Shown piece by piece: positions 1,552 to 63,699 of a stretch of 64,000 bases of DNA. Source of the stretch: Eledone cirrhosa (Eukaryota); contig OZ024741.1 of NCBI GenBank assembly GCA_964016885.1, positions 198,834,001 through 198,898,000 of the forward strand, written 5' to 3'. Below the pieces are notes generated by a model that saw nothing but the letters and a program-made list of their open reading frames with translations, did not search any database and was not told the origin of the DNA. Within the stretch, counting starts at the first letter, position 1. Each line of letters opens with the position of its first letter. The translations under genes and the position numbers were made by a program.

Positions 1552-3388
1552 CTTCCTGAAAGTTAATCTGGTTTTCATGCTGGACACGGCACTACTGATA
1601 TGATCTTCTGAGCTAGACAGCTCCAGGAGAAGTGCATGGAACAAGGTTTGGATCTGTATCAGGCTTTTGTCGATCTGACAAAAGCTTTCGATACTGTTAA
1701 CAGAAATGCATTATGGAAGATACTCCAGAAACTTGGCTGCCCTGATAAGTTCCTTGCATTAGTTAGGTCTTTTCATGACAACATGAAGGCTTGGGTTAAT
1801 GTCGGAGGTAACATGTCGGAGCCTATCTCAGTAAAAAATGGAGTGAAACAGGGGGATATTCCAGCACCGACTCTGTTTGCCATATACTTTGCAATGGTTT
1901 TCTATATTGCATTCAGGAATTGCGAGCATGGTGTTTACATCCGATATCAAACCTCAGGCAGCATATTTAACATCAGGCGCTTTGCTGCAAAAACAAAAGT
2001 ATTTACATCAATCATAAGAGACCTCTTGTATGCTGATGATTGCAATCTTGTAGCGCACACAGAGAGTGATATGCAGCACATTTTGAATGCATTTTCTGAT
2101 GCTTGCACTGCCCTAGGATTGACTGTCAGTCTCAAGAAAACCGTCGTCATGTACCAGCCTGCCCCTGGTAAGCAGTACAGTGAACCAAATATCTATGTGT
2201 ATGGCAAACGACTTGGAGTGGTTGATCAGTTTGTCTACCTGGGAAGCACTGTCAATCGATACAGCAACCTTGATAATGAAATCCCACTCAGGATTAGGAA
2301 AGCAAGTGATGCTTTCGGAAAGCTAGAAAGGGGACTCTGGGGTCGGCGAGACATATGCAAGAAGACAAAGGTAAAGGTGTACAAGGCATGTGTGCTCTCT
2401 TCTCTTCTTTATGCCTGCAAGACCTGGGTCACATATCGACACCATCTTAAGCAATTGGAGCGTTTCCATCAGATGTGTCTCAGATGGCTCCATGGCATTC
2501 ACTGGAGGGACCACATCAGTGTTGTCGAAATTTTGGAAAGCTCTCTGTGTTACAGTATAGAAGCTCTTATGCTTAAGCAACGACTCCGTTGGAGTGGTCA
2601 CCTTGCCAGGATGAAGGATCCTAGAATACCAAAACAACTCTTTTATGGAAAGTTAGTTAAAGGAAAACGACCGCCACATAAACCAAAAAAGAGGTTTAAG
2701 GATTCCTTGAAAGCCTCTTTGAAAGACGCTAACATCTCTGCTGATACATGGGAAAATGTTGCTACTGATCGTTATAAAAGGAGAAAGACTGTATATGAGG
2801 GGAAAGTTGCCTTTGAGGCATCTCGAATCGCATACGAGAAAGTAAAGCGGGATGTGAGGAAGGGCATTGCTGTTGCATTTCCAGACGGCAAAGGTCCTCC
2901 TATGGTGCTGACATGCAGCGTCTGTGCGAGACTCTGCCTAAGCAAAGCTGGACTCGAAAGTCATCTTCACAGTCATAAAGTAAGACCAGTGGTTGACTAC
3001 CAGGCTGCTGTTGGAGATGCTACTCATCATGCTTGCCAAACATGTGGTAGAGAATGTAAATCAGCAGGAGGGCTCAAATGACATGCAAAAGTACATGAAC
3101 TCCAACCACAGCCGGCTATTCCCAGTGAATGTTTTGGTTGCCAACTCTGTGCAAGACACTTTAGATCATTGGCTGGGCTAAAAAGCCACATTCGATCGCA
3201 GCACTGTTAATTGCTATCGTGTGTGTGTAGATATGTTTATGTGTGTGTGCGTGTGTGTATATATATATGTATATTATTATTGTTGTTGTTGTTGTCGTTA
3301 TTATTATTATTATTGTTATTATTATGGTTTTTTTTTTTTTTTTTTTTCCGTGCAATGGCCATACTCGATAACTAAGGGGCAGCCATCA
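1550..3388 (+). mobile_element. 5'-truncated RTE (BovB-like) LINE: reverse transcriptase plus C-terminal C2H2 zinc fingers
   Basis: ORF 1636-3081 has AFVDLTKAFD, GVKQG, LLYADD, FVYLGS and LRWSGH. Fingers CSVC..H..H and CQTC..; after the stop, CQLCARHFRSLAGLKSHIRSQH. Flanked by (TA)n on both sides. Confidence 0.9.
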
Positions 3389-3407
3389 TATATATATATA
3401 TATATAT

Positions 3408-4966
3408 AGGAACCAGTAAGACCCCGACAGCTGAGCTCAAGCCGTTTCGACGGCTAATTCTGGACTAAATGAAAATTTATCCTGGTATTTAAATAGCCGA
3501 TCTTCTCAAGGGGTAATTCCATATATGGTCAAAGTGATTGTCAAAAATCAGTAGTAATTCTGTGATTGCAAATTAGTAGGGGAGATGGTGGCTAAACCTG
3601 CCAGTAGGAGAAAGAGGGGAGGGGGTGGAGTAGACCCAATCAAGCGTTGGTAGTGCCAGCTACAGCTGGGCATGAGGTCAAAGAAGATACTGGGGAGGGG
3701 GAGGAAGTCGGAACGGTAGGTAGAACAATGGGGGGTAAAAATATATATGAAAGAAAAAATACTGAGAGTGAAGAAAAGCGAATAAGTGTAAAGAAAAAAG
3801 TAAAGCAAGTTCTACGACCTAGGTCTCTAGCTATTGTTAGGCTAGAATAAATAAATAAATAAAGAAAGAAAGAAAGAAGTAAAGAAAGAAAGAAAGAAAT
3901 AACGAAATAAGTAAAAGAACTAGGTGGGACGGAATAAGCGAGGACCCTTTTAAGAGGTATAAGTACGTAAATGATACGGTGACGGGTCAACAAAAGGGGC
4001 CAAAATACTAAAGAGACTACCACGAAATAAATAATAAAGGTTTCTATCCCGAGCACAATGCCAGCAACCACCCAGTGCAGCAAAGTGAACTAGTACGAGA
4101 TAATAATTCTGAGTCCCGAAAAAAATATATACTAATGCTAACTCTAAAAGATCTAAAACAAGCTACATGAAAGTTCGTACGAAGTAAAGGTAGAATACGG
4201 AAAAATAAATTCAGAATCCACCCCGCCCAAAAGAAAAGCGAAGAAAGAAATACTGAAACGAAAAAATAAGGCATAAGTGCCACTAAGAAATATAGAAGGC
4301 ACGGAGAAAGGTGGGAGCGGTCGGAAAAAGGGGGCAAGTATCCGGGGTCTAAACCAACTGCTATAAAAGGCGGAGTCCGCCAAATCTATCATAGACTAGG
4401 GGAGGGGGTGGGGGTACTAAGGCTACAAGGGACCAAAGGGCAGCCTCGGGTGGGCGAGAAAAGACGCCGACAAAGGAGAAGAGCTGGGGTAGAAGGACTA
4501 AGGAGAGAAGGGGGAAGGAAATAAAGGAAGCGATAAAAGAATAAAAAGAAGATCTTACGTCTCCCTAGCCTAACAATAGCTAGAGACCTAGGTCGTAGAA
4601 CTTGCTTTACTTTTTTCTTTACACTTATTCGCTTTTCTTCACTCTCAGTATTTTTTCTTTCATATATATTTTTACCCCCCATTGTTCTACCTACCGTTCC
4701 GACTTCCTCCCCCTCCCCCTCCCCAGTATCTTCTTTGACCTCATGCCCAGCTGTAGCTGGCACTACCAACGCTTGATTGGGTCTACTCCACCCCCTCCCC
4801 TCTTTCTCCTACTGGCAGGTTTAGCCACCATCTCCCCTACTAATTTGCAATCACAGAATTACTACTGATTTTTGACAATCACTTTGACCATATATGGAAT
4901 TACCCCTTGAGAAGATCGGCTATTTAAATACCAGGATAAATTTTCATTTAGTCCAGAATTAGCCGT
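3408..4966. mobile_element. ORF-less fold-back element, probably PLE-derived: ~400-bp inverted arms 3450-3845 / 4565-4966 around a 719-bp purine-rich spacer
   Basis: Arms are reverse complements apart from a 6-bp CCCCCT indel; the mirrored ORFs 3548..3808(-) and 4602..4868(+) confirm this. Left end abuts (TA)n; right arm is cut by an RTE 3' end. Confidence 0.85.
3421..3514 (-). ncRNA. Type I hammerhead ribozyme with U3-A8 core variant
   Basis: Minus strand: stem I ACCCC / core UUGAGAA / stem II GAUCGGCUA..UAGCCGUC / GAAA / stem III ACGGCU-UGAGCUC-AGCUGU / C17 (GUC triplet) / GGGGU. Confidence 0.75.
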
Positions 4967-8000: not shown

Positions 8001-8492
8001 AAACTTAAGGAGTAGTAACCGGGGCGGTAGCTTTGCTGTACTGATTTATTAGGGAACTTACTAAAGCCGGTGAGTTATGATTGGACACTGCTCATTGGGA
8101 AGACTGCGGAATATGGAAGACAATGCTTAAATTCTCAAAATCAACAGGTCGCCGTAATATAATTTAGATAGATAAATTCTCTCCTTGGGAAACAGCAAGA
8201 TGTGTTTTATACCTGTGATCAGGCGGGTGGGGTGGGGTGAGGTGGGGTGGGGTATGAGAGAAAGAGCAAAGTGATTACGAAGTTAGGGAGCGAGATGCAG
8301 GAAGGTTCTAGAATAATTAATTAATAATAATACTAGAAGGATTATATTTAGGAGAAGGATTTGATTTAGGAAGGGTCCAACAGAATGAGACAAATAATTT
8401 AAAAACATTGTAAATATTAATTGAAAATCCGAGATAAACAAACGGTGAATTTGAATTGTAGACTAGCATATCATAATTGTAGACTACCATAT

Positions 8493-8539
<47 letters not shown>

Positions 8540-8540
<1 letters not shown>

Positions 8541-9418
8541 CATACGTCAAGACGGGCGGTCTGGAAAGTGAAAGTCATTTTTGACACTGAATTTTTTTTT
8601 TTTTTTTTACAACAGGTCTCAATAGTGAAAGTTACGATACACACGCAATTGTATGGATTTCTTAGTATATATATATATATGTGTGGGTGTGTATATGTTT
8701 GTTTATTTACAACAGGTCTCTATAGTGATATGGTGTTAATTAGTATTGCGTGTGCGATTTTTTTTTTTTTTCTTTTTTGTGTATTGTGTGTACGGAAATG
8801 TTTTTTAAAAATAATGACATTGTGTGTTTTTAAATAATTGTTTCTACTTTAGGCACAAGGCCAGCAAATACCCAGTGCATTACTGGTACTTTATTTTATC
8901 GACCCCGTAAGGATGAAAGGCAAAATGACATAAATAACTACATAGTTAGACGTTTGTTGCATATAAAATATAAATTGACGTACCTTATGAAAATCCTTAT
9001 TACACCGTATAAATAGCTGAAATACAGTTGATCATCTCGCCAAACTTGTTGGTGACCCGACCTTAATTTCTTTGGGGACAGAGAGTTGGTGCCAACAATT
9101 TTGGCGAGATGTACAAACACATATATACACACAAACATATATATACGTCTAAACCCATGCTTGCGTGGAAAATAGACGTTAAACAATGATGATGACACAA
9201 ACACATATATATATACAAACACACATATATATATACATACAGACACACATATATATACACACATATACACACCCACACATATATATATATATATTAAGAA
9301 ATCCATACAATTGCGTGTGTATCGTAATTTTCACTATTGAGACCTGTTGTAAAAAAAAAAAAAAAAATTCAGTGTTGTCAAAAATTACTTTCACTTTCCT
9401 GACCGCTCGTCTTGACGT

Positions 9419-9422
<4 letters not shown>
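8540..9422. mobile_element. MITE-like element with ~160-bp inverted termini (8540-8697 / 9262-9422) in (TA)n, containing a SINE A fragment and an RTE-tail fragment
   Basis: GCATACGTCAAGACG..ACAACAGGTCTCAATAGTGAAA..GGATTTCTTA recurs reverse-complemented at the right end. Confidence 0.7.
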
Positions 9423-9492
<70 letters not shown>

Positions 9493-9615
9493 GGAGGTGA
9501 GTTTTATTGTAGTACAATAAAGCAATGCAGATATCGGATAAGAAGCACTCTACAGTATGTGGGACTGGAGTATGCATAATATAAGATCAAAAGATGGTTA
9601 AAGGAGTTCAATATA

Positions 9616-9682
9616 TTTTATTATGCGCATTTCAAAAACAAACATCATCAAACAATAATATTTGTGTTTTCATCAGATAAAA
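9616..9682 (-). ncRNA. Opposite-strand copy of the same hammerhead
   Basis: Reverse complement of 9812-9878 (TCATCAG at 9670-9676, TTTC at 9630-9633). Confidence 0.8.
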
Positions 9683-9811
9683 CAGGAGAACATGATATGA
9701 AGGCTAAAAAAACACTTGTTGATAGTGCAGTTTTAAATCAACATATGATATGTTGATTTAAAACTGCACTATCAACAAATGTTTTTTTAGCCTTCATATC
9801 ATGTTCTCCTG

Positions 9812-9878
9812 TTTTATCTGATGAAAACACAAATATTATTGTTTGATGATGTTTGTTTTTGAAATGCGCATAATAAAA
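9812..9878 (+). ncRNA. Minimal type I hammerhead ribozyme (PLE type, palindromic stem III loop)
   Basis: UUUUAU / CUGAUGA / AAACACAAAU..GUUUGUUUUU / GAAA / UGCGCA / UA / AUAAAA: canonical core, 6-bp stem I, self-complementary loop III. Confidence 0.8.
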
Positions 9879-9910
9879 TATATTGAACTCCTTTAACCAT
9901 CTTTTGATCT

Positions 9911-9958
<48 letters not shown>

Positions 9959-10512: not shown

Positions 10513-10514
<2 letters not shown>

Positions 10515-10761
10515 GTTATGTAATAAACAACATAAGATAATTATTTCATTTACCAGTGGTTTCTTGAAGATGTCGGAAAGATACAGGAAAAAAGAGTGCT
10601 CTATGTAGGCTATATAGAGCACTCTTTTTTTCTGTATCTTTCCGACCTCTTCAAGAAATCACTGGTAAATGAAATAATTATCTTATGTTGTTTATTACAT
10701 AACTAATAAGCTCTGTAGCCTACATAGAGCACTCTTTTTTCCTGTACCTTTCCGACGGAAA
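10513..10761. repeat. 193-bp palindrome (10513-10705, centre 10609) plus a third arm (10716-10757); degenerate HHR-like motif
   Basis: TAGTTATGTAATAAAC..GTTTATTACATAACTA. TTGAAGA at 10564-10570 is followed by ~42 nt that also pair with 10716-10757, which is followed by GAAA. Confidence 0.8.
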
Positions 10762-14534: not shown

Positions 14535-16765
14535 TTGATTATAAAATCGATAATAGTAAGTGATATTAAAAAGAAAAGTTTAATATGGTCTCCTCATTTG
14601 AGTCGAAAAGAAAAAAAAACAAACATAAAAATTCAAAAATACATGTCACTGAAAATAGGGACTACAATACATGTAAAACTTGAAGAATACCTGTCCTTAT
14701 ATTAAAGATGTAAGTAGGATAATTATACATTATAAATCCTAAGAATTTAACCGTTTAAAAAAAAAAAAAATGGAGAACCCGGAAGTAGTTATAACAGAAA
14801 AATAACTAGAGAAATATAATAGGTAATTAAGGATTTAAAAAAATATTTAAAAGAATTAAAAAGGGGTGTTAATAATAATAAGAAAATTATAGATAAAATC
14901 AAAATTAATGATTTAAAATAAGGGGTATATAAAGAATATATTCAAAGAGTGTATAGAAGCAGAAGAAAGGCCAAAGTAGTAATAGTTAACACTAAAAAAA
15001 AAAAATATTATAGGGGGATACTATAGGAAGTGTATTGTAAATAATTGTAAAAATGAGTGAGTTAAAAGGAGTATAGGGGATAAAGGATCAAGAGTATAAA
15101 TGAAAATAATATCATAAATGGAAGTAAAGAAAAAAAATGGTATAAATATAATATGAGTAAAAATAAAATATCAAAAAAGAAAAATAGAATATAAATTAAT
15201 TAGGAAGAAAATTTTAATTAGTTAAAATGTGAAGGTAAGGTTGAAAAGGAATAGTAAAAAAAGGGAAAGGAAAATAGTCAATTTAACTAATGGAATCTAA
15301 GTGGAATCAAAAACCCTGTTGGCGAACAAATATATTAAACGATGATGGCAGTTAATTACAATCTCGCTGCGATCATTTATTGGGCTGAGTTTAGACATAG
15401 TTATGAAATAAGCTTCTGATAAACAGAGATCACATTGCCCTTTACAACCTTTGTAAGGAGAGAATTTAGCTAAGATATCCCAGACTAAAGAGTATTCACT
15501 ATTAAAGAGTTTTAGTGTATTTATATGTCCGGTTAAAGAAGTAGAAAATTTAAATTACTATTCTTAAATGAATGTCTGTGAGAATTAAAACGAGCCTTGA
15601 AAGGGCTAGCAGTAACCCCAATGTATGTTCTTATGTCATTATCGATTTTAACAGTGCATCTATATACTACATTGTTAGTAAGGCATTGACCATTCAGAGG
15701 GCAGTTGTTAGGATTTCTACAATTATAGTTACGGTTAGAAGCGGTAGAGATTGTATGTAAAGGGATAGAATTAGTGGGCATATCATTTGACTGTGAGGTG
15801 ATAGGAGAATTACAAGAAAAACTATTAATTTACCTCTACCACTTAACCATTTATATACGAATAATTCTAAGTGGTAGAGGTAAATTAACAGAAAGGGAGG
15901 CACTATGTTTTTTTAGTTTCTTATGGTTACTGAAAGCAATATCATTGGCCAAGTTAGGGGTAGTAGAGAAAGAAATCTTATCGTTATTAAGTCGATTAAT
16001 ATAAGTTAAGATCTCATCGGGTTTATGATAAGGACGGTAGAGTCCTGTACCTAGATTTTATGGTTAGCCTCAATTGTGATAGAAAGACCAAAGCTTTTAA
16101 AAAATGTATGCAAATGTTTCTTAACAATCTCAATTCTACGTGGGTTAAAGTTATCTACAGTAAATAGAGCATCGTCTCTATATAAGTCTCCTTGCAGAGC
16201 GGGTAAATCCTCCTTTAGCTTGTGTAGGAGGTAAATTCCCACAAAGTCAGTAACTTGTGCAGAGTCACTTGACCCCATAGTGATGTGAAAGTTATCCGGT
16301 CTATTTGCCATAGCCAATAACAACCATTGAACTTTATTATAGTGCGTCTAGCAGTTAATATAATGTCTGTTTTTTCCTTGATAAATCAGTATTAGTACTT
16401 GCTAATATTAGGGCTTTATTAAGTAAAATAGGGGTTATGGAGACATAGTAGCTATCTATGTCAAATTGAATAAATCTAAGATGATTCTTATTCTTAATGC
16501 TAATGAACCAGTCACTAACCTGGTCAGTATTAAGCGAAAGTTTAAAGCAAATTCTGCCTTTCAATTTAGGTATTTTTACAATCAAGGATACACTTACTAA
16601 TTCGACCTACATCACATGTAGAAGGGCTTATAAGTCTATCAGAGAGGTTTTCTAAAAAGTTGCATTTATGGTCTTTCAGAGAAAATCTAGGGGTCATTGG
16701 TTTATAGGGGTCAGTGTATTTATCAATATCTAAATCCTTCACAATGGCCTTAGCTTTATTATTAA

Positions 16766-17500
16766 CTAGCTGCAGTACCCGGTAATATCTGGGAAAGGTG
16801 GGGTTATTCGCAGTTTCCAGAGTGTGCCTGAAAATGCTAACGACCCTGGGTGCCCATACTGGATTTTCAATAGCAACCTTTGCTAGGTGTGTTTATGGTA
16901 GATCAATTTTTTGTGTGGAACTATCAATAACTGTTTAAGTCATAAGTCTTTCTAAACCGGGGAAGTTTGAGCTCGAAGAGTATCGAACATATTCAACAAA
17001 CTTATGTATAAGAATAGCAAACTTACGGCCTTAGCGATCAAGAAAAAACACAGAACAATTATTGAAGTCATCGCAATTATTGAAGAAATTATAACCGAGT
17101 GAACATATTCAGGTATTGTTCAAGCACCCTGTATATCACCGTTTGTAATGCCTTTCGAATGACTGAAGCAATTCAATAAAACCATCCCATTTTCCCCCTA
17201 TAGTAGACATAACCCAAGAAAACACACCATAATAAGTTGGATAAACAATCAGAAGTGTTGGCCCTAAAGAGGGCCTTGTAACGTTCACTGTTGCAAAATG
17301 TCAATAACGGGAGAGAAGTTACATCTTCTTAATTCGTGCTAATCTTCCCATGATCCGACACCTCAAAATATCGACATTCGTCAACATATGATTTGGGTTT
17401 TATTTTTCTGACTAATCTCATAGTAAGCAAACTTCCAGGTAACTTTTTTTAGAACTTATCACCGGTTCCTGCAGTTGACCTTAATGTGACCTAAGCGTGT
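16766..17500 (-). mobile_element. Helitron-like insertion interrupting the PLE RT (3' end clear, 5' end uncertain)
   Basis: Minus strand ends CCCAGATATTACCGGGTACTGCAGCTAG|T, the same hairpin+CTAG pattern as the other two Helitrons. Confidence 0.55.
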
Positions 17501-21729: not shown

Positions 21730-23450
21730 TTGTTTAAAATACATTTGTTGATGTAAAGGATTTCCAGGGCTTCTGTGGCACAAAGATCACAAGGTCTTTT
21801 ATTTCCATTATAAGATCTACTCCCAGTGTAATCTATACAGGATGTTATTGTCTTTTAAACTCCAGATTTAGGTCGAAAGTGAAGTCACATTTCTTCTTGA
21901 AGGGTTTTGAAATGAATGAGAGTGCATGTATAAATGCTGCTTAAATCTATTGGCAGTTAACCTATGTAAGACTTACTAGTCATGGTTGTATCAACCTTAC
22001 ATTTATAAACTATATTGTTTGATAGTCATTTCCTGGCTAGAGGGAAGTGTTCCTTAGTGATACAATTGCAGCTAGAACTAAGTTCAGGATTGTTTGTATT
22101 ATTACACCTATGTAATTTAGCTAGGTTCAATGCAGCAATATTGTGTGCGAGGTTGAGAGTTGTGGAATAGGATATTTTAACTGTGTTTCTATTAAAATTC
22201 TTGTGATATTTATGTGCTAGGAGGAAATGCTTTCTAATTAAAGTAAGGAAAGTTTTAGCTACTGGTGTGGCCACTTCCATATTATAATGCGCCAGGATCT
22301 AGTTTTCTTAGTTTTATGCTATTTTATCTAGAAATATTCTCCAAGCTAGAGCTTCATTGTAACATGAAGAATGATCAGTGAAAATATGCTTATTAGCTGA
22401 TAAACAAGAAAGTCTCAATGAAATGTTTTTGACCAGATTTTTAGTTATGCTGACTGGATGGTTAGAATGCTTACTAATGTAATTTAACATATTTGGCTTT
22501 TTATACGGGTAGTACAGGCCATTCGACATATTGAGTGTCACATCAAGGAAATTCAGTACAGATAGGTTGGCGTCAACTTGAATGGAAAAGTTGAAAACTT
22601 TAAAGAAAGCAATAAGCTCCTTTCTAAACCTATCGATAACTTGGAGTCTGCACTTATTCATAATCAAAAAGCCATTATCATGGTACAGACCCTACCTACA
22701 TTGAGGAATTCACCCTTGATAGAAAAAAGTAAAAATAGACCAATAAGGTCTGTGACCTCTGCCAAATCACTGGAAACCATGCACACATCGAAGGGGGTAA
22801 TATTTGATTTCTTAAGCTAAAATAGAGTTGTCAATATTTGTCACAGACTTACAAGCATTCAAGATGACATCAATTTCAAAATCCTTTATCTCTATGAGCG
22901 TTTTGGCGCAATTAATATCCCTAAGAAGGAGTGGTGAGGTGATAGAAGAATAATAGTTGTTGATGTCGAAATGGATAAAGCCACTCTGTTCCTTGTTATG
23001 TATGCCCCTAAACCAATTAATCACAATGAAAAAATTATTCCACAAGGCTAAAGGGGCTATATCTCTAATTTCTATCTAATTCTATCTAAAATTCTTTTAC
23101 TAAGTCTACCTCAAGCAGACTTAGTGGGGTTAATAAGCTGAATAGATAGGTTGTTATCAAGATTGAGTTTATAAACCTTCAGAGTAAAATGAGGAGTAAC
23201 AGGGTTCAAGGAATCAGTCTGGTCCTGGATATTTAGTTCTGAAGTGATATTTAAACCAGTGCTGTTGATATCGTTAATTACACTCTGGCCATTTATTGTA
23301 AGTTTTAAATCCAAACCTTTCCTGGGTGGTTGAAATAGAAGACATGCCAACGCATCCTTTTTAGGAAAGAACCAGTTTTTTGGATGTGCATTTTCAAGTA
23401 TGTCTTCCTGTTTGGTACCAGAATATTTTTTGTAGAAATATTTAAGTTTT
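21730..23450 (-). pseudogene. Degraded Neptune-type PLE RT + GIY-YIG
   Basis: LINPTKS, FIHFDINNYYSSI, NFLDVTLN..YISKHSNHP, FNRNTVKISYSTT..CNC; many stops and frameshifts. Confidence 0.85.
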
Positions 23451-27544: not shown

Positions 27545-27601
<57 letters not shown>

Positions 27602-27609
27602 TATATATA

Positions 27610-28534
27610 TATTGTTATACTTGGGGAGGGTCATATTTGTGTAATATTGCCAGAATTAATGACAGAACACACTCACTGTTTGGTTGGTTTTCGCTTCTGT
27701 GTCTTTTATATCGGTAATCTAATTTATTCGGTCCTCAATGTTGCCATTGACTGACCAACGGTAAAAAATAATACAGATACAATATAGACACAAACACATA
27801 TATATAGTTTATCAAAGTTCTTTCGTTGCACATCTGCCAGACAACAACACGACGGTAACATAGACAACATAGAAATTAGAATAATATCTAAACATAGAAA
27901 TGACCCAGCAGATAGGCAAATCAGAGAGGCCAGTGAAATAGAACTTAGAAGGCCAAGGCTAAACAGAAAGAATGAATGGAATAACAACAACACCCAAACA
28001 AACAACACTGACCTAAGAGAAGTATAAATAAATAAATAGATAAATAAATAAATACATACACAAGCTCAATAACAACAAACACATATAAACACACACTAGT
28101 AAAGATAGAATACATTAACCAATACACAGTCACCCAATCACGAACACACATCAAACAAAACACTATACACACACGTAAACGCATGCGCAAAGAAGACAAA
28201 ATAAAATAAACAAATAAATAAATATATAAACAGACTAAATTAAGATGGCGTAGAAACTAGAATGCAACGGGAGGAAACAATAGCACCACTGACGATGTTG
28301 CAGATGTGCAACGAAAGAAGTTTGATAAACTATATATATGTGTTTGTGTCTATATTGTATCTGTATTATTTTTGACCGTTGGTCAGTCAATGGCAACATT
28401 GAGGACCGAATAAATTAGATTACCGATATAAAAGACACAGAAGCGAAAAGCGAAAACCAACCAAACAGTGAGTGTGTTCTGTTATTAATTCTGGCAATAT
28501 TACACAAATATGACCCTCCCCAAGTATGACAATA
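27610..28534. mobile_element. ORF-less fold-back PLE-tail element: ~230-bp inverted arms 27610-27837 / 28300-28534; HHR-like motif at 28286-28324 (+)
   Basis: Arms are reverse complements. CCA / CUGACGA U / GUUGCA-GAUG-UGCAAC / GAAA; stems I and III are weak. Third copy of the terminus at 57146-57346. Confidence 0.8.
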
Positions 28535-28579
28535 TTTGTTTCGACACACGATTTCATATCAAAAACCTCGCAAAACTAA

Positions 28580-28663
<84 letters not shown>

Positions 28664-39275: not shown

Positions 39276-42200
39276 AGGAAATTTCTTTAAGTCGTTTGGA
39301 AGCCTCGACAATGCAGATGGGTAAATCTCCAGGTAACAAGAACCGGTGGTGGAGAGAGAGATGTAAGTGGGTGTACGTTGAGATGCGTGGCGTGTATAAG
39401 ACTATAGCGTGTAGAGGAATGAAGGAAAGAGCGTAAAGGATAAAAATAAAAATAAAATAACAACACGAGTTAGAGTTACCTTGGGAGAGATTTAATTGTC
39501 CCTATATATTTCGGATTCACATCCATCAACTGGGGTTTTTTTCCGGGGTGGGGAAAGGTTGTCTGTCGGAAAGGTGCGAAACGTGTCCTCCGCTGTTCGT
39601 TGTTTGGAATATCTGAGGTATTCAGCAGAGCGCGCGTGCGCGTGAAATGGGGTCGGTCAAGCAGAGGTCAGCGGCCGAAGTAGTTCTTTCAATTGTGGGA
39701 GTGGGGAGGCGCTAGCTGTCAGTCCATAGTATTCTCTGCTTGTTTGGTGAATGTTACTGTGTGTGTGTGTGTGTGCGTGTGTAGTTGTCTCGCTTGAGTG
39801 TGTGTGTGTTGTTGCCTTGTTCCTCTGTATTGGCAGTGTAGTATGTTCGTATGGTGGAATGCTACTGTGTGTGTGTGTGCGTGTGTTACTGTCTCGCTTG
39901 TGTGTGTGTGTGCGTGTGTTGCTGCATCGTTTGTTAACTTAAACCAACCACCTCATTTCGCTTCTCTCGGATCGGTTGTTTAATTGTGGCCCTAGGCGTT
40001 TGATCCAAAGTGCTTCCTTGATACGTAACGTACCGACGTTTCTTTCTGTTGCTAGAATTGTGACAACGGGCCTTCCGTCTTTGTTTCCGCATTTGGCTAT
40101 GTGTTTCCGGAAAGACGAGGTTAGTGTGCTCCTTGATCCGGATGTGCAACGGCCGGATTGTGCTACCTATATAGTATTGGTTGCACTTGTTACATTCTAT
40201 CTTATACACAACGTATGTGCGTAGGCAACAGTTCGCATGGCGCATCGGGCAGTCTCCGAGGGAGCACGTGTCAGTTGATTTCCCGGGTTTCCTGGAGAGG
40301 CATCTTCGCAGGGAAGGAGCCAAGTGGGCCAGGTGGATATCGAGGCCCTCCCTCCGTATAGCCTTGCGGATAGCGTTGGTGGTATTCTCGCCCAGGTGTG
40401 GAATTTTAAGGAAGCACTTGCCTTGGGTGCCTCTCTGTCTCTTGTGTCTGGTGTCTCCTATTCTGTCTGTGAGCGAGGTAGGGTACCCGTTCGTCTCCAG
40501 CACCTCAAGGAATCACTTGGTATGAGTGACACCACTTGCGGGGTCGCTGCAGCTGTTTTTAATTCGCGCGATCTCGTTCGTGATGTATCCTCTTATGGCA
40601 CTGTTAGGGAGGGCGGACTTGTAGTGGACGAACAGCTCCCTGCAGGCTGCCTTTCGGTAGAAGTTGCAGTGGATCCCTCCCTGTTCCGTGATGTTGATTC
40701 GGCAGTAGAGGAGGGCAAGTGACCCGTCGTCGTTGGGGTGTTCAACACTGAAGTCAATGTTCTCGTCCGTGTTGTTGAACGTCTCATAGATTCTGTTCGC
40801 CGTATCTTGGGAAGATGTGAGGATGAGGATATCGTCCACATACCTTGAGAAAGGCGACGGCGTTGGGGTGGCAGGCGTTGAGTGCCTTGCGCTCGAGGCT
40901 GTCCATGTAAGAGATCGCTAGCACACCTGACAGGCTTGATCCCATGGGCAGTCCCGAGGTTTGTTGGTATGTTTGGTCAAGGAATCCGAAGTAGGTGTTG
41001 TCGACGACGATGGATAGGAGTTGGTGGATGTCAGTGGTGGTGAGCCCGAAGCAGTGTAGGTCGGTGGATTGGACGCGTTCCATCAGTATATTAACGGCCG
41101 GGAGTGCCGGGACCGAGGTGTAGAGAGCGACTACATCAAGGCTGAAGGCATATCTGTTATTCCTTCTGGTGTCGGGATCCATTTGATGCAGGCGCTTCAA
41201 CACCTCATCGGAGCTGTTAACGTGTCCCGGCAAGGTGTCTAAGATGGGTTTGAGTATTCTGGCTAGGAGCCATGAAATTTTGTAGAGTGGTCCTTCCACG
41301 CTCGATACAATGGGTCTGATCTTCAGGTCAGGTCCCTGTTTGTGTGTTTTCACGAGGTGGTAGAAGGCGGGTAGTCTGCTGTTCCTCGTGAGGAGGTTAT
41401 ATCTCAGCTTCTTCGGGAGCTTCCGCCGGTCGCAGATGTTGGTCCAGGCGGCGTTCATGTGCTCTTCTATCTGCGCGGGAGTGATTCCCGTGACCTTGGA
41501 GTAGAGGTTGTCATCGTCAAGGTGTTGGAGGGCCAGGGTGTTGTAGGCCTCTCTGCTGATGACACAGAATTCTTTTCCCTTGTCGGAGGGGAGGTAGATG
41601 CGGTTCTTCGATTTTAGGTTGGAGAGACTGGTGAGTTGAGATTTGGTGAGGTTGTGTGTTGTGCGTGTGTGTGTGTGTTTGTGAAGTATATCTGAGATGG
41701 AGTGTTTTAACCTGATGAGTTTAGTGTCGAGTTCGTGGTTGGTGGGGGGGGGGGTAAGTGGGGAACTTGGGGGGGGTTGCGTAGGCGCTGTTATTTTCTG
41801 TGGCGCTGTTGAAGGCGGTCACCCATTTAAGTTGGTAAGCGGCTCGACAAAAGTTGGCCTCGATGTCGAGTTTAAGTCTGTCGTCGAGTCGTTGTGAGAC
41901 GATGAACTTGGGTCCGAGGTGTAGGAGTTTCAGCTCGTCGCTCGTGAGAGTGCCGGTTAGGTCGGTGACCAGGTGCGTTGCATCGTTGAGGTGTGGCTCG
42001 GTGTTGGTGGATGCGGCGTGGCGGTTGTTACGTTGTTGTTTTCCACGTGGTTCTGGTCCGTCTGTTCGTTAGTGTCGATGTTCTCGTTGTGGAGTTTAGA
42101 CAAGATCCACTCATATTTCCGCTTGAGCCGTTTTTTCTCGTATTGGACTCTGGAGTGGTAGCATTGGTCGATTGCTTTAGTGATTTTCAGGAGCAAGTCG

Positions 42201-42789
42201 CCGGGTGTTATTGAAAGTCGATGTGTCCGCTCTGACAGTGTCCGCTTATGGATGTGTAATTGGCGGTTGAGATGTCTCAGGATCTGTTTAATACACGTGC
42301 GATGTATGCGGTTAGTGGTGTTTTGGAAAGCTGGTGTACGTAGGCTTACTGGTAAGCGGATGTTCCTGATGGTGTTGGGGATGACATCGTTTTTTAGGCA
42401 GCGTTTCAGGAAAATAATTTGACAGCCAGCATTGGCCCATTTCTCCGAAAGTCTAAACAGTTCCTTTGCGGAAGCAAACAATTCCTGGCTCCGGTGTAAG
42501 GTCGTGTATAAGATAGAATGTAACAAGTGCAACCAATACTATATAGGTAGCACAATCCGGCCGTTGCACATCCGGATCAAGGAGCACACTAACACCAGGG
42601 CCTCGTCTTTCCGGAACACATAGCCAAATGTGGAAACAAAGACGGAAGGCCCATTGTCACAATTCTAGCGACAGAAAGAAACGTCGGCACATTACGTATC
42701 AAGGATCAAACGCCTAGGGCCACAATTAAACAACCGATCTGAGAGAAGCGAAATGAGGTGGTTGGTTAAAGTTAACAAACGATGCAGCA

Positions 42790-42829
<40 letters not shown>

Positions 42830-43459
42830 GCATTCGACCATACGAATATACTACACTGCCAATACAGAGGAACAAGGCAACAACACACACACACTCAAGC
42901 GAGACAACTACACACGCACACACACACACACACAGTAACATTCACCAAACAGGCAGAGAATACTATGGACTGACAGCTAGCGCCACCCCACTCCCACAAT
43001 TGAAAGAACTACTTCGGCCGCTGACCTCTGCTTGACCGACCCCATTTCACGCGCACGCGCGCTCTGCTGAATACCTCAGATATTCCAAACAACGAACAGC
43101 GGAGGACACGTTTCGCACCTTTCCGACAGACAACCTTTCCCCACCCCAGAAAAACCCCCCAGTTGATGGATGTGAATCCGAAATATATAGGGATAATTAA
43201 ATCTCTCCCAAGGTAACTCTAACCCGTGTTGTTATTTTTATTTATATTTTTATCCTTTACGCTCTTTCCTTCATTCCTCTACACGCTATAGTCTTATACA
43301 CGCCACGCATCTCAACGTACACCCACTTACATCTCTCTCTCTCCACCACCGGATCTTGTTACCCGGAGATTTACCCATCTGCACTGTCGAGGCTTCCAAA
43401 TGACTTAAAGACATTTACCTTATTATTCCACAATCCTTCAAGCAAACTTCAATACTCTC
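39276..43459 (-). mobile_element. Near-complete Penelope/Poseidon-type PLE with ~0.9-kb inverted terminal arms (39276-40212 / 42500-43419)
   Basis: N-terminal FLKRCLKNDVIP (41957-42497); RT FYHLVKTHK..IRPIVS, SLDVVALYTSVP, GLPMGS, YVDD across a frameshift; GIY-YIG VVYKIECNKC..YYIGST.RPLH.RIKEH. Both ends are in TA-rich microsatellite. Confidence 0.93.
43157..43192 (+). ncRNA. Minimal hammerhead-like motif with non-canonical core (mirror copy 39500-39535, minus strand)
   Basis: CCC / CAGUUGAU / GGAU-GUGA-AUCC / GAAA / UAUA / UA / GGG. Confidence 0.6.
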
Positions 43460-48412: not shown

Positions 48413-49097
<685 letters not shown>

Positions 49098-49467
49098 TAT
49101 ATATAGATATATATATATTTAAAAGAGTCGAAGTCTCTTATATATTAATCATCATACACATGAAATGACATTCAAAGGATATTAATATATGGATATCAAA
49201 TTTAATGATATATCATGAAATGAAATACTCCAACACTAATTACATCATCAGATCGAGACATAGATTAAGCTTCTAAAAGTGCAACATCTTAAATTGTAAG
49301 TACTAATTTTGATATGGGAAATTATGGTAGACAAGTGCTAGAATGAGAACAACAGCTGGCCAAGGTGTTAAGATATCAACTTGCCTTTTGAACTGTCAAC
49401 CAAAAAAGGAAAGGAGTTGTTTGTCAGATCAAACCAAAGAAATAATGTTTGTGTTGGTCTTTCCATT

Positions 49468-49813
49468 CATCATCATCATCATCATCATCATTTTACGTCC
49501 ACTTTTCCCTGCTTGCAAAGGTGGGACGGGAACTGATTCTGGCTTGATTTCTACAGCTGGATGCCCTTCCTAACACCAACCTCATTTACAGTGAGTGCTG
49601 GGTGCTTTTTTGCCGTGGCACCTCCACGACCACTTTGCAGTGGAATGATATGAGCCCCAGTCCTATCATCTCATTTCTACAGCTGAGTAAACTGGAGCAA
49701 TGTGAAATAAAGTGTCTTGCTCAAGGAAACAACACATCACCCGGTCTGAGAATTGAACTCACAACCTTTCGATTGCAAGGCCAATGCTCTAACCACTAAG
49801 CCATGTGCCTCCA
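49468..49813 (-). mobile_element. SINE family B
   Basis: Reverse complement of the 48574 copy without the amplification. Confidence 0.9.
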
Positions 49814-52109: not shown

Positions 52110-52685
52110 AGTGGTGGTAATAGTGGAGTGGTGGTAATGTGGGAGTGGTGGTAATGTGGGAGTGGTGGTAATGTGGGAGTGGTGGTAATGGAGGAATGGT
52201 GGTAATGTGGGAGTGGTGGTAATGGTGGAGTGGTGGTAATGGTGGAGTGGTGGTAATGGAGGAATGGTGGTAATGGGGGAGTGATGGTAATGGCGGAGTG
52301 GTGGTAATGGAGTGGTGGTAATGGTGGAGTGGTGGTAATGGGGGAGTGGTGGTAATGTGGGAGTGGTGGTAATGGTGGAGTGGTGGTAATGGTGGAGTAG
52401 TGGTAATGTGGGAGTGGTGGTAATGGAGGAATGGTGGTAATGGAGTGGTGGTAATGGTGGGGTGGTGGTAATGGTGGAGTGGTGGTAATGTGGGAATGGT
52501 GGTAATGGGGGAGTGATGGTAATGGCGGAGTGGTGGTAATGGTGGAGTGATGGTAATGGAGTGGTGGTAATGGTGGAGTGGTGGTAATGGTGGAATGATG
52601 GTAATGGGGGAGTGATGGTAATGGCAGAGTGGTGGTAATGGGGGAGTGATGGTAATGGTGGTAATGATGGAGAGGTGGTAATGAT
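52110..52685. repeat. Low-complexity minisatellite, ~18-bp unit GGAGTGGTGGTAATGGTG and variants
   Basis: Direct reading; yields HHYHHS/PPLP pseudo-ORFs. Confidence 0.9.
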
Positions 52686-57669: not shown

Positions 57670-60600
57670 TGGCCTGTGGTGTATATGGGGGTGGGTGTGA
57701 TGGTGAGATGTTGGTGATGGTCGGTGGATGAGATGGGCTGTGGTGTGGTGGTGGCGGGTTGACCTTGGTCTGTAGTGTATGTAGGGGTGGATGTGATGGT
57801 GAGATGTTGGTGACGGTCGGTGGATGTGATGAGCTGTGGTGTGGTGGTGGCGGGTTGGCCTTGGTCTGTGGTGTATGTGGGGGTGGATGAGATGGGCTGT
57901 GGTGTGGTGGTGGTGGGTTGACCTTGGCCTGTGGTGTATGTGGGGGTGGGTGTGATGGTGAGATGTTGGTGACGGTCGGTGGATGTGATGGGCTGTGGTG
58001 TGGTGGTGGCGGGTTGGCCTTGGTCTGTGGTGTATGTGGGGGTGGATGTGATGGTGAGATGTTGGTGATGGTCGGTGGATGAGATGGGCTGTGGTGTGGT
58101 GGTGGTGGGTTGGCCTTGGCCTGTAGTGTATGTGGGGGTGGATGAGATGGGCTGTGGTGTGGTGGTGGCGGGTTGACCTTGGCCTATAGTGTATGTGGGG
58201 GTGGATGTGATGGGCTGTGGTGTGGTGGTGGCGGGTTGGCCTTGGCCTGTAGTGTATGTGGGGGTGGATGTGATGGGCTGTGGTGGTGGCGGGTTGACCT
58301 TGGCCTGTGGTGTATGTGGGGGTGGATGTGATGGTGAGATGTTGGTGACGGTTGGTGGATGAGATGGGCTGTGGTGGGGTGGTGGCGGGTTGACCTTGGC
58401 CTGTGGTGTATGTGGGGGTGGATGTGATGGTGAGATGTTGGTGACGGTCGGTGGATGAGATGGGCTGTGGTGGGGTGGTGGCGGGTTGACCTTGGCCTGT
58501 GGTGTATGTGGGGGTGGGTGTGATGGTGAGATGTTGGTGACAGTCGGTGGATGAGATGGGCTGTGGTATGGTGGTGGTGGGTTGGCCTTGGCCTGTAGTG
58601 TATGTGGGGGTGGATGTGATGGTGAGATGTTGGTGACGGTCGGTGGATGAGATGGGCTGTGGTGGGGTGGTGGCGGGTTGACCTTGGCCTGTGGTGTATG
58701 TGGGGGTGGGTGTGATGGTGAGATGTTGGTGACAGTCGGTGGATGAGATCGGCTGTGGTGTGGTGGTGGCGGGTTGACCTTGGCCTGTAGTGTATGTGGG
58801 GGTGGATGTGATGGTGAGATGTTGGTGACGGTCGGTGGATGAGATGGGCTGTGGTATGGTGGTGGTGGGTTGGCCTTGGCCTGTAGTGTATGTGGGGGTG
58901 GATGTGATGGGCTGTGGTGGGGTGGTGGCGGGTTGGCCTTGGCCTGTAGTGTATGTGGGGGTGGATGTGATGGGCTGTGGTGGGGTGGTGGCGGGTTGAC
59001 CTTGGCCTGTAGTGTATGTGGGGGTGGATGTGATGGGCTGTGGTGGGGTGGTGGTGGGTTGGCCTTGGCCTGTAGTGTATGTGGGGGTGGATGTGATGGG
59101 CTGTGGTGGGGTGGTGGCGGGTTGGCCTTGGCCTGTAGTGTATGTGGGGGTGGATGTGATGGGCTGTGGTATGGTGGTGGTGGGTTGGCCTTGGCTTGTA
59201 GTGTATGTGGGGGTGGATGTGATGGGCTGTGGTATGGTGGTGGTGGGTTGGCCTTGGCCTGTAGTGTATGTGGGGGTGGATGTGATGGGCTGTGGTATGG
59301 TGGTGGTGGGTTGGCCTTGGCTTGTAGTGTATGTGGGGGTGGATGTGATGGGCTGTGGTGGGGTGGTGGCGGGTTGGCCTTGGCTTGTAGTGTATGTGGG
59401 GGTGGATGTGATGGGCTGTGGTGTGGTGGTGGTGGGTTGGCCTTGGCTTGTAGTGTATGTGGGGGTGGATGTGATGGGCTGTGGTATGGTGGTGGTGGGT
59501 TGGCCTTGGCCTGTAGTGTATGTGGGGGTGGATGTGATGGTGAGATGTTGGTGACGGTCGGTGGATGTGATGGGCTGTGGTGTGGTGGTGGTGGGTTGGC
59601 CTTGGCCTGTAGTGTATGTGGGGGTGGATGTGATGGGCTGTGGTATGGTGGTGGTGGGTTGGCCTTGGCCTGTAGTGTATGTGGGGGTGGATGTGATGGG
59701 CTGTGGTATGGTGGTGGTGGGTTGGCCTTGGCTTGTAGTGTATGTGGGGGTGGATGTGATGGGCTGTGGTGTGGTGGTGGTGGGTTGACCTTGGCTTGTA
59801 GTGTATGTGGGGGTGGATGTGATGGGCTGTGGTGGGGTGGTGGCGGGTTGACCTTGGCTTGTAGTGTATGTGGGGGTGGATGTGATGGGCTGTGGTGTGG
59901 TGGTGGTGGGTTGGCCTTGGCTTGTAGTGTATGTGGGGGTGGATGTGATGGGCTGTGGTGTGGTGGTGGTGGGTTGGCCTTGGCCTGTAGTGTATGTGGG
60001 GGTGGATGTGATGGGCTGTGGTGTGGTGGTGGTGGGTTGGCCTTGGCTTGTAGTGTATGTGGGGGCGGATGTGATGGGCTGTGGTGGGGTGGTGGCGGGT
60101 TGACCTTGGCCTGTAGTGTATGTGGGGGTGGATGTGATGGGCTGTGGTGTGGTGGTGGTGGGTTGGCCTTGGCCTGTAGTGTATGTGGGGGTGGATGTGA
60201 TGGGCTGTGGTGTGGTGGTGGTGGGTTGGCCTTGGCTTGTAGTGTATGTGGGGGTGGATGTGATGGGCTGTGGTGGGGTGGTGGCGGGTTGACCTTGGCC
60301 TGTAGTGTATGTGGGGGTGGATGTGATGGGCTGTGGTGGGGTGGTGGCGGGTTGACCTTGGCCTGTAGTGTATGTGGGGGTGGATGTGATGGGCTGTGGT
60401 GTGGTGGTGGCGGGTTGACCTTGGCCTGTAGTGTATGTGGGGGTGGATGTGATGGGCTGTGGTGGGGTGGTGGCGGGTTGACCTTGGCCTGTAGTGTATG
60501 TGGGGGTGGATGTGATGGGCTGTGGTGGGGTGGTGGCGGGTTGACCTTGGCCTGTAGTGTATGTGGGGGTGGATGTGATGGGCTGTGGTGGGGTGGTGGC

Positions 60601-61615
60601 GGGTTGACCTTGGCCTGTAGTGTATGTGGGGGTGGATGTGATGGGCTGTGGTGGGGTGGTGGCGGGTTGACCTTGGCCTGTAGTGTATGTGGGGGTGGAT
60701 GTGATGGGCTGTGGTGGGGTGGTGGCGGGTTGGCCTTGGCCTGTGGTGTATGTGGGGTGGATGTGATGGGCTGTGGTGGGGTGGTGGCGGGTTGGCCTTG
60801 GCCTGTGGTGTATGTGGGGGTGGATGTGATGGTGAGATGTTGGTGACGGTCGGTGGATGAGATGGGCTGTGGTGGGGTGGTGGCGGGTTGACCTTGGCCT
60901 GTAGTGTATGTGGGGTGGATGTGATGGGCTGTGGTGGGGTGGTGGCGGGTTGGCCTTGGCCTGTGGTGTATGTGGGGGTGGATGTGATGGTGAGATGTTG
61001 GTGACGGTCGGTGGATGAGATGGGCTGTGGTGGGGTGGTGGCGGGTTGACCTTGGCCTGTGGTGTATGTGGTGGTGGGTGTGATGGTGAGATGTTGGTGA
61101 CGGTCGGTGGATGAGATGGGCTGTGGTGTGGTGGTGGCGGGTTGGCCTTGGCCTGTGGTGTATGTGGGGGTGGATGTGATGGGCTGTGGTGTGGTGGTGG
61201 CGGGTTGGCCTTGGCCTGTGGTGTATGTGGGGGTGGATGTGATGGGCTGTGGTGTGGTGGTGGCGGGTTGGCCTTGGCCTGTGGTGTATGTGGTGGTGGG
61301 TGTGATGGTGAGATGTTGGTGACGGTCGGTGGATGAGATGGGCTGTGGTGTGGTGGTGGCGGGTTGGCCTTGGCCTGTGGTGTATGTGGTGGTGGGTGTG
61401 ATGGTGAGATGTTGGTGACAGTCGGTGGATGAGATGGGCTGTGGTGTGGTGGTGGCGGGTTGGCCTTGGCCTGTGGTGTATGTGGGGGTGGATGTGATGG
61501 TGAGATGTTGGTGACGGTCGGTGGATGAGATGGGCTGTGGTATGGTGGTGGCGGGTTGACCTTGGTCTGTGGTGTATGTGGGGGTGGGTGTGATGATAAG
61601 ATGGTGGTTATGGTC
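57670..61615. repeat. ~3.9-kb G/T-rich minisatellite of 63-bp units and 96-bp (63+33) variants
   Basis: 63-mer GTAGTGTATGTGGGGGTGGATGTGATGGGCTGTGGTGGGGTGGTGGCGGGTTGACCTTGGCCT; optional 33-mer TGAGATGTTGGTGACGGTCGGTGGATGAGATGG. Confidence 0.95.
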
Positions 61616-62082
61616 ACTTACTGGGATGGGCTGTGGTGTGAGGTTAGTGGGTTGTCGGTAGACGGCTTTCCGTGTGTGGGGGTGTGGTTGTGGTGTTGTT
61701 GTTTATGGTAGTGGCGTTTGTGGTGGTGTGGTGGATGTGTTGGTGGTGTCGAGTCCTTGCGGAGATACAAAGCTAAATGCTCTTCGTCTGACAAATACGC
61801 TGTATATATGTATACACACACACATATGTATATATGCGCATATATATTGATGTATAAACACACACAACACATACGCATATATATATATATATATATCGCA
61901 TCTCCCCTTGTTTTGGAATTCAAAACATAAGTTTTTTAGATTATTGCCCTTACTAGCAGGAAGAATGGATGCTAAACGATGATGATGATGATGCACACAG
62001 ACATACATACAGACACACACACACAGACACACATACACACCCACCCACCCACACCCACCCACACCCACCCACACCCACACAC

Positions 62083-62123
<41 letters not shown>

Positions 62124-62439
62124 TAATTGCCATGTTACTTGAGGAAGTCCTTAGCTTTCTTTGGAAAAAATGTTAACTATCTTTTAAATCATAATCACTA
62201 TCTTATACAAAGTCTTCTTCTCTGGCCTTTTACTCAGTTGTACAATTGATGTTGAGAGTAAATCTGTGACTTATAAAACAGAATTAAACCACTTTCTTTA
62301 CATCAGTACATTCAATAGCAACTCGCCAATCAAGCAAGAGCAAACATTTGCATGTAATTTAAATACAAAATCCAACAAACAAACAAAAAATTGGTCTTTC
62401 TTTGTTGTATTTGTATATGTCTATGAAGTGTTTATGTAT

Positions 62440-63115
62440 ACACATGTGTGAGTACTTGTATGTTTGTATATATACACACATGTGAGTGCTTGTATGTTTG
62501 TATGTATGCAGATGTGTGAGTGTTTGTATGTTTGTATGTATGCAGGTGTGTGAGTGTTTGTATGTTTGTATGTATGCAGATGTGTGAGTGTTTGTATGTT
62601 TGTATGTATGCAGATGTGTGAGTGTTTGTATGTTTGTATGTATGCAGATGTGTGAGTGTTTGTATGTTTGTATGTATGCAGATGTGTGAGTGTTTGTATG
62701 TTTGTATGTATGCAGATGTGTGAGTGTTTGTATGTTTGTATGTATGCAGATGTGTGAGTGTTTGTATGTTTGTATGTATGCAGATGTGTGAGTGTTCGTA
62801 TGTTTGTATGTATGCAGGTGTGTGAGTGTTTGTATGTTTGTATGTATGCAGATGTGTGAGTGTTTGTATGTTTGTATGTATGCAGATGTGTGAGTGTTTG
62901 TATGTTTGTATGTATGCAGATGTGTGAGTGTTTGTATGTTTGTATGTATGCAGATGTGTGAGTGTTTGTATGTTTGTATGTATGCAGATGTGTGAGTGTT
63001 TGTATGTTTGTATGTATGCAGATGTGTGAGTGTTTGTATGTTTGTATGTATGCAGATGTGTGAGTGTTTGTATGTTTGTATGTATGCAGATGTGTGAGTG
63101 CTTGTATGTTTGTAT
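62440..63115. repeat. 34-bp tandem repeat, ~19 copies
   Basis: TGTATGTTTGTATGTATGCAGATGTGTGAGTGTT. Confidence 0.95.
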
Positions 63116-63699
63116 GCATACACATATATGTGTATATATGTGTGTAAGGAGGAAGACAATAGAAAAGTCCTAATCTTCATACAAACAATAAACTAAGCAG
63201 AAAAGAAAATTTAAATATTTTACAAACAAGCCTCTTTGTTGACCATGTAGAGGGACATGCTGACATATATTCACAGCGATTTTGTATATTTCTGCAGTTT
63301 TTATCACAGAGCGTCATTTAAACAGTAACAAGAGTCTTTACAGAACTTTTACTCTCTAATGTATAACCGGTTTAATATAGGTAGAATATCATCTGTTGAT
63401 GTCAACTTTGTCTTTTATCCTAAAGTAACAATTTGGTACTGGGGCCAATAGTTCCTATATCCTTTTCATACTTCCTCATTATCCTTCTCACTTTCACTCA
63501 CTCACTCTCTCTCTTTCTCTCTCTGTCTCAGTCTGTCTCTCTCTGGAAGAAATTGGTTGTGTTCAGACCTGAAGATGGGTATAGGCTCACCAGGTTTAAA
63601 ATGTATCATTACAACGCCCCTACAACTCCATAAAGAGATACATACATGATGGCTACATCTCAATTTAAAGAATTGTCCTGACCTGATCACCCCCCCCCC

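Follow-up and report, generated by a model that had tools for sequence, protein, structure and literature searches.

The palindrome at positions 9576–9918 of the window (the whole 64-kb stretch of DNA analysed here) is a short head-to-head insertion in (TA)n of the terminal repeat (pLTR) of a Hydra-clade Penelope-like element (PLE), probably made when two internally primed reverse transcripts of a capped RNA were joined at their ends. The hairpin is not unique: short PLE insertions that are nearly identical number at least 1,300 in this genome, and it is one of them. The locus is real, young and ordinary within a large Hydra-PLE family, its structural kind having already been published. The value of the locus and its family lies in the copy statistics, the locus itself being ordinary for this genome; its DNA anatomy, as read from the sequence, is explained as a retroelement duplication.

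Structure of the palindrome

Recomputed coordinates bore out the two 171-bp arms, 1-nt spacer and single mismatch described in the sequence-only reading: the arms lie at 9576–9746 and 9748–9918, with G9747 as the spacer, and they differ at one pair (C9715 against A9779). The extent given in that reading stands for the palindrome (9576–9918) and falls short for the element, which goes 86 nt further left (9490–9575). The left arm (9576–9746, minus strand) comprises element positions 1–171 of the pLTR and is the only one to carry the 86-nt PLE tail, which occupies element positions 172–257 (9490–9575, minus strand), contains an AATAAA at 9503–9508 and, in a tandem copy, continues into the ORF leader. 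The right arm (9748–9918, plus strand), likewise positions 1–171 of the pLTR, is tail-less and runs into (TA)n. The whole inserted unit spans 9490–9918, with both ends in (TA)n, between an (AT)33 target microsatellite on the left (9424–9489) and a (TA)23 microsatellite on the right (9911–9955) that overlaps the final bases of the arm; a target-site duplication is not legible inside (TA)n.

The spacer (9747, plus strand) immediately precedes the +1 of the right arm. It is likely to be a copy of the RNA cap; considered at the window locus in isolation, the base could instead have arisen as the complement of the left arm's natural −1 C. At arm position 32 the left arm carries the common family allele and the right arm a rare G-to-A change (9779): an exact pattern at arm positions 20–39 counted 11,295 pLTR copies genome-wide with the left-arm allele and 72 with the right-arm allele. 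A seeming A/G mismatch that recurred at this position in many palindromes, considered as a trace of editing or strand-specific mutation, was rejected as a search artefact of a query that bore the rare allele (72 versus 11,295). The recent age proposed for the palindrome is upheld by the arms, which differ at 1 of 171 sites, and by the tail region, which is 100% identical at 21 loci including the window.

The parent element

The proposed PLE origin was substantiated by full copies of the parent element in the genome, which occur in both tandem and inverted form in the order pLTR–tail–ORF–3′ UTR–pLTR. In one of these (L032), a pLTR with the same 86-nt tail is followed by a leader, an 800-aa ORF and then, after a long 3′ UTR, another pLTR that lacks the tail; an additional inverted copy has it. 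The 800-aa ORF, found in L031 and L032, contains YRDD and the series IYE...YFG...R...H...E...N, corresponding to an RT and, at the C-terminus, a GIY-YIG-type endonuclease. We found 19 homologs at 30–39% identity, none of them named, and used eight of the 19 in an alignment; searches of Pfam and the PDB with the ORF returned nothing meaningful.

The diagnostic set laid out for the Hydra clade in the pertinent part of PMC8557442 consists of DKT, YRDD, CxCX5C, a GIY-YIG-like endonuclease, CxxC and CxH, together with RWK. The ORF contains SDKT, CNCRIKNKC (the CxCX5C linker), CNLCLNEK and NRRSDLFSICLH (CxxC and CxH around the conserved E and N); at the RWK position it reads RWT, and most of the homologs read RWK or RWE. 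Further Hydra features of the element are its (TA)n insertion site and its pLTR hammerhead, and the partial tandem pLTR, the inverted 5′-truncated copy and the one-sided tail are those of a PLE. By its motifs, and by its likeness by eye to the Hydra rows, we assign the element as a Hydra-clade endonuclease-positive PLE.

In the L032 copy (1606–4005), a ~70-aa Asn/Pro/Thr-rich insert lies between the RT and the linker at residues about 600–670; it is missing in the eight aligned homologs and is reminiscent of Asn-rich inserts in the ORFs of Adineta Penelope. A full-ORF copy at L031:2115–5847 has a sense part that begins at about position 260, the putative tail-end priming site, and looks, in this one case, as if a long cDNA had stopped there.

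The hammerhead motifs

Helix-checked scans agreed with the earlier description of one hammerhead motif per strand (CUGAUGA...GAAA-UGCGCA-UA on plus and on minus) and found no hammerheads beyond these two in the 64-kb window. The minus-strand type I motif lies at 9616–9682 (core CUGAUGA 9676–9670, predicted cut after 9622) and the plus-strand type I motif at 9812–9878 (core CUGAUGA 9818–9824, predicted cut after 9872). Each arm contains CUGAUGA, GAAA, UGCGCA and UA, a long helix II and a helix I of 6–8 bp; helix II consists of 3 bp, a C-U mismatch and then 12 bp. The term 'canonical' suits the core and helix III, which is palindromic; it does not suit helix II, which is long and closed by an A-U rather than a G-C pair, where canonical motifs have a short helix II with a G10.1–C11.1 closing pair. 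No Rfam hammerhead model matched; nothing in Rfam reached gathering score, and what appeared below the cut-offs was limited to generic models of hairpin microRNAs and weak matches to other models.

Helix III is self-complementary over 8 bp, and two copies can pair across 8 bp. The conserved core, helices I–III and palindromic helix III are those of the type I dimer-dependent hammerheads, and the dimer type proposed earlier is in line with the hammerheads described in PMC4209133. We compared 21 motifs, hand-picked from 103 variants in the fetched loci and including sister families and related sequences. The three helices covary. Helix cells were paired in 95.6% of cases versus 85.7% after shuffling (40–62% in slid controls), and double changes numbered 36 versus 11, counts that are inflated because the motifs are related. 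Position 4 of helix II was paired in 0 of the 21, helix III was self-complementary in nearly all, and pairing among six family representatives was 0.96 versus 0.62 across families. The predicted lowest-energy fold of the isolated monomer differs from the three-way junction (z −0.65).

At L189:2114–2298 and L146:2583–2973 and in L057, L123 and L173 we observed sister hammerhead families whose core is the same; they have a self-complementary helix III (UAUAUA, UAUGUA, UGAUCA) and the same helix II C-pyrimidine mismatch, and some of them occur as opposite-strand pairs.

A read-through transcript of the window hairpin is predicted to fold into a rod of −262 kcal/mol with both motifs buried. Such a 170-bp rod would need read-through from an outside promoter; a transcript from the centre or from +1 would hold one arm only.

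Copy number, ends and junctions

The arm has many matches of 93–100% in the 3.0-Gb genome (40 of 171 candidate matches were scored), and exact patterns identified 1,304 head-to-head palindromes centred near +1 genome-wide. The repeat content would suit a cephalopod host. End positions were surveyed in the 50 centred palindromes that come first on contig 1. Exactly one tail was present in 43 of them and two tails in none; in those 43, one end lay at 257–260 and the other at 167–180, both abutting TA repeats. Six of the remaining seven were interrupted, and one was scored as having two tail-less ends, with one arm cut by the fetched region. Raw reads also contain both end positions running into TA.

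Arm divergence was 1.3% at the same locus (45 loci) versus 6.0% between loci. Minor subfamily alleles were shared between partner arms 201 times and discordant 18 times, and in 65 of 90 cases no arm was closer than the partner. Seventeen junction types occurred among 50 palindromes: a 4-nt ATAT overlap in 21 (the commonest centre, a perfect palindrome), the window type in 9, a 2-nt overlap in 6 and single variants in 14. In short-read contigs of run X1, which may be the assembly's own sample, the +1 of one arm is joined to the other arm at 15 or more different points.

A further recurrent junction, found in L154/L155 and L173/L174, has both arms starting with G and AT between them; this G-AT-G junction could come about if an internal GATATG site were copied briefly ahead of the final join.

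Arm starts and the G before +1

By exact pattern, at least 4,191 arms read through into the natural upstream sequence, and in 4,334 a non-natural base replaces the C before +1 (G 2,143, A 578, T 1,613). If the base came from the partner at random, the expected counts would be G 955, A 1,909 and T 1,470, which places G above expectation (2,143 versus about 955) and A below it (578 versus 1,909); T and A, unlike G, are partly ambiguous because of ATAT overlaps. When 30 G contexts were inspected by eye, 13 were untemplated by either arm, 6 were ambiguous (the window type among them), 8 also fit partner microhomology and 3 were start duplications. Inspection of 30 position-ordered arms gave 14 starting at +1, 10 reading through and 6 others. 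The sharp start at +1 and the frequent non-encoded G fit a capped transcription start, with the RNA 5′ end at +1; an extra G is described as the mark of capped full-length L1 insertions (PMC11702581). Against a start at +1, the sequence upstream of the first pLTR is natural in L032, the sole tandem copy examined, and not one of four hits (two loci) with a tail running into the ORF begins at G+1.

Self-complementarity alone as the cause of the centre hotspot was ruled out by the few junctions at the 8-bp palindrome of the hammerhead, a stronger annealing site than ATAT: 64 junctions fell in that zone overall, and 5 of 50 among those listed were centred on it. At the ribozyme cut site, 65 arms had a non-natural preceding base versus 8,623 reading through (<1%), and hammerhead-cut RNA was rejected as the template on these counts. 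A small contribution from such RNA is possible; 9 of 12 cut-site cases inspected were true junctions, most of them with microhomology. We infer that the hammerheads are passengers of the pLTR and that their cleavage does not set the template ends. In the in vitro experiments described in PMC11167929, hammerhead mutants left insertion unaffected.

Mechanism of insertion and alternative explanations

In the mechanism that we favour, a capped RNA would begin at the pLTR +1 (natural context TTTC/ATAT) and both strands of (TA)n would be cut by the GIY-YIG endonuclease. Priming would take place on the transcript's first pLTR, near +170 for one strand and near +258 for the other, so that the cDNAs would be limited to 170 or 258 nt. 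The +170 cDNA would usually get to the cap and acquire a C, whereas the +258 cDNA would have to displace the +170 cDNA and would often halt early; the two 3′ ends would then anneal via ATAT or other microhomology and copy each other. Longer inverted copies would correspond to priming at the downstream pLTR.

We evaluated this mechanism on 50 arms starting at +1 (30 after G and 20 after A, with two loci counted twice). Half of the pairs (25 of 50) were uneven, with a partner start at position 10 or beyond, and in these the complete arm was tail-less in 22 and tailed in 3 (p = 1.6e-4). In 7 of the 50, the partner begins at 173–227 and has no sequence overlap with the other arm. The entire series is accounted for by two cDNAs with primers at +170 and +258 on opposite strands of the target. 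A single RNA on which the downstream enzyme displaces the upstream cDNA explains both the one-tail rule and the completeness bias; two RNAs from one active source are also possible as templates, and the two arrangements are inseparable because the shared alleles fit both. PLE protein is described as cutting and extending both strands of AT-rich DNA in vitro, with starts at two internal RNA sites flanking the tail (PMC11167929). Against twin priming, the in vitro start sites reported there were used equally on both strands, from which alone no one-tail rule follows, and the tailed arms could have been shortened by later deletions.

The same pairs disfavour the snap-back inferred in the sequence-only reading, in which one tail-primed cDNA would reach +1, fold on itself and be copied back to +170 before a join through TA microhomology. 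Near-identical arms and the one-tail rule follow from it directly, and it is compatible with symmetric loci such as the window, but under it the tailed arm must never be the shorter of the two, the opposite of what was found in 22 of the 25 uneven pairs, where the tail-less arm is the complete one. Moreover, 7 of the 50 partners lie wholly within the tail region, and because these do not overlap the other arm, snap-back from the tail end fails without later deletion; one begun at the other end has no way to provide the tail. The perfect palindrome with a 4-nt overlap (21 of 50) would also suit two annealing ends better than self-priming, and we consider snap-back unlikely overall. Self-priming on an antisense RNA template, argued for the junction palindromes of Adineta Penelope from head-to-head palindromes and intron retention in the relevant part of PMC3846280, predicts neither the G before the sense +1, nor sense 3′ ends fixed at +170 and +258, nor the complete-arm bias, and is very improbable here.

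It is distinctly improbable that the palindrome or its tailed arm is a non-autonomous mobile unit with an internal promoter, moved by the Hydra protein in trans like a retrozyme or MITE. The very high number and fixed length of the copies would fit such a unit, as would the presence of the +1, the hammerhead, both priming sites and AATAAA in the tailed arm and the internal promoter described for Penelope (PMC2377424). However, the 17 junction types in 50 palindromes imply that junctions are remade at each insertion, the tail variant of the window is found in long read-through copies too, and no tandem arrays of the short unit were present among the fetched loci. An assembly fold-back artefact is hardly credible: although no read or contig bridges the window locus, its two flanks differ, the tail is on one arm only and the centre is common to 1,304 loci. 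Opposite-strand joints from few start places also occur in the raw Illumina reads of other samples (X22 and X23), and a fold-back centre occurs in one contig of a second organism (organism B).

Neighbouring repeats in the window

A second TA-flanked palindrome, of another repeat family, lies about 600 bp away at 10513–10705 (193 bp, 95%; with 10716–10756), and a relative of it in L046 (717–892) contains head-to-head hammerhead-like cores. It probably arose by the same process in a sister PLE, with a truncation that falls inside the ribozyme. On the minus strand there are two broken Hydra-type RT/endonuclease remnants (15336–16775 and 21814–23448), whose longer matches to the parent ORF have 31–54% identity. 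At 39279–43416, 945-bp inverted repeats (93%) surround a broken RT-like ORF (about 39937–42538, minus strand), likely an inverted-form PLE of another clade. Further long inverted repeats with unique middles are present at 3450–4966, 8489–9475, 27549–28630 and 48575–49813, several of them TA-flanked, and the palindrome locus directly adjoins the one at 8489–9475. G-rich minisatellites are found at 57670–61640 (63/96 bp period), 62433–63116 (34) and 52110–52661 (17).

Comparison with known systems

Inverted pLTRs, tails and opposite-strand hammerhead pairs are already published features of PLEs, and inverted truncated copies with one-sided tails are described as typical of them (Craig et al. 2021, PMC8557442). 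Like the Hydra-clade PLEs presented in that paper (e.g. Hydra-1_Obim), the element has a single RT ORF with a C-terminal GIY-YIG-type endonuclease, the DKT, CxCX5C, CxxC and CxH motifs, a (TA)n target, a pLTR hammerhead and an inverted 5′-truncated copy with a one-sided tail. By eye, against the supplement of PMC8557442, it is a separate family from Hydra-1_Obim. It has RWT where the Hydra-clade PLEs described there have RWK, and a tail of 86 nt where theirs is usually 30–40; it also differs in its ~70-aa Asn-rich insert before the linker, its long 3′ UTR and its more than 11,000 pLTR copies.

The PLE remnants of Schistosoma (Cervera and de la Pena 2014, PMC4209133) similarly contain hammerhead pairs 100–700 bp apart on opposite strands, with a long helix II and a palindromic helix III that is read as dimer-dependent; weak, dimer-dependent cleavage is reported for them, and the passages of that paper on the opposite-strand pairs leave these without explanation. 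The motifs described here differ in the presence of helix III (UGCGCA), the A-U closing pair and the conserved C-pyrimidine mismatch at helix II position 4. Adineta Penelope (Arkhipova et al. 2013, PMC3846280) shares head-to-head pLTRs with a junction palindrome, an initiator-like pLTR motif, a tail at one end and Asn-rich ORF inserts. Few copies and an antisense self-priming model are given for it in that account, whereas here pLTR-only palindromes occur in thousands and carry the signature of a sense, capped template. A type I hammerhead in a short non-coding repeat, and a ribozyme motif in each polarity, recall animal non-LTR retrozymes and ambisense-ribozyme rod RNAs. In place of the tandem direct repeats of retrozymes, each with a hammerhead and cut to monomers, we found head-to-head pairs, with no tandem monomers bounded by cut sites and <1% of arms starting at the cut site; the rod, unlike those of ambisense-ribozyme RNAs, is a perfect DNA inverted duplication and not an evolved circular RNA.

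The segments joined in L1 twin priming are not known to overlap, whereas here they usually do, giving a palindrome, and priming here would be internal rather than at the poly(A) end. Shared with the 5′ inversions of L1, as described in PMC11702581, would be two primers on one RNA, an internal microhomology junction and an extra G at capped 5′ ends.

Significance

The origin of the inverted pLTRs and one-sided tails of PLEs is called open in passages of PMC8557442 and PMC11167929. In the open literature we found no statement of twin priming or of a cap-derived G for PLEs. The thousands of young junctions described here point to a sense, capped template and to paired internal priming (+1, +170, +258), and their statistics offer a specific, testable model for the open step of PLE transposition. 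They also speak, at genome scale, against hammerhead cleavage as the step that defines the copied RNA.

More tentatively, and as a minority possibility, the mini-palindromes might themselves give rise to ~270-nt capped RNAs and, via the Hydra protein, to fresh palindromes, because the tailed arm keeps the start site, the hammerhead, both priming sites and the poly(A) signal. If this were true, a self-reseeding, non-autonomous hairpin retroelement would have placed more than 1,300 near-perfect 170-bp hairpins in one genome, and it may feed host dsRNA pathways.
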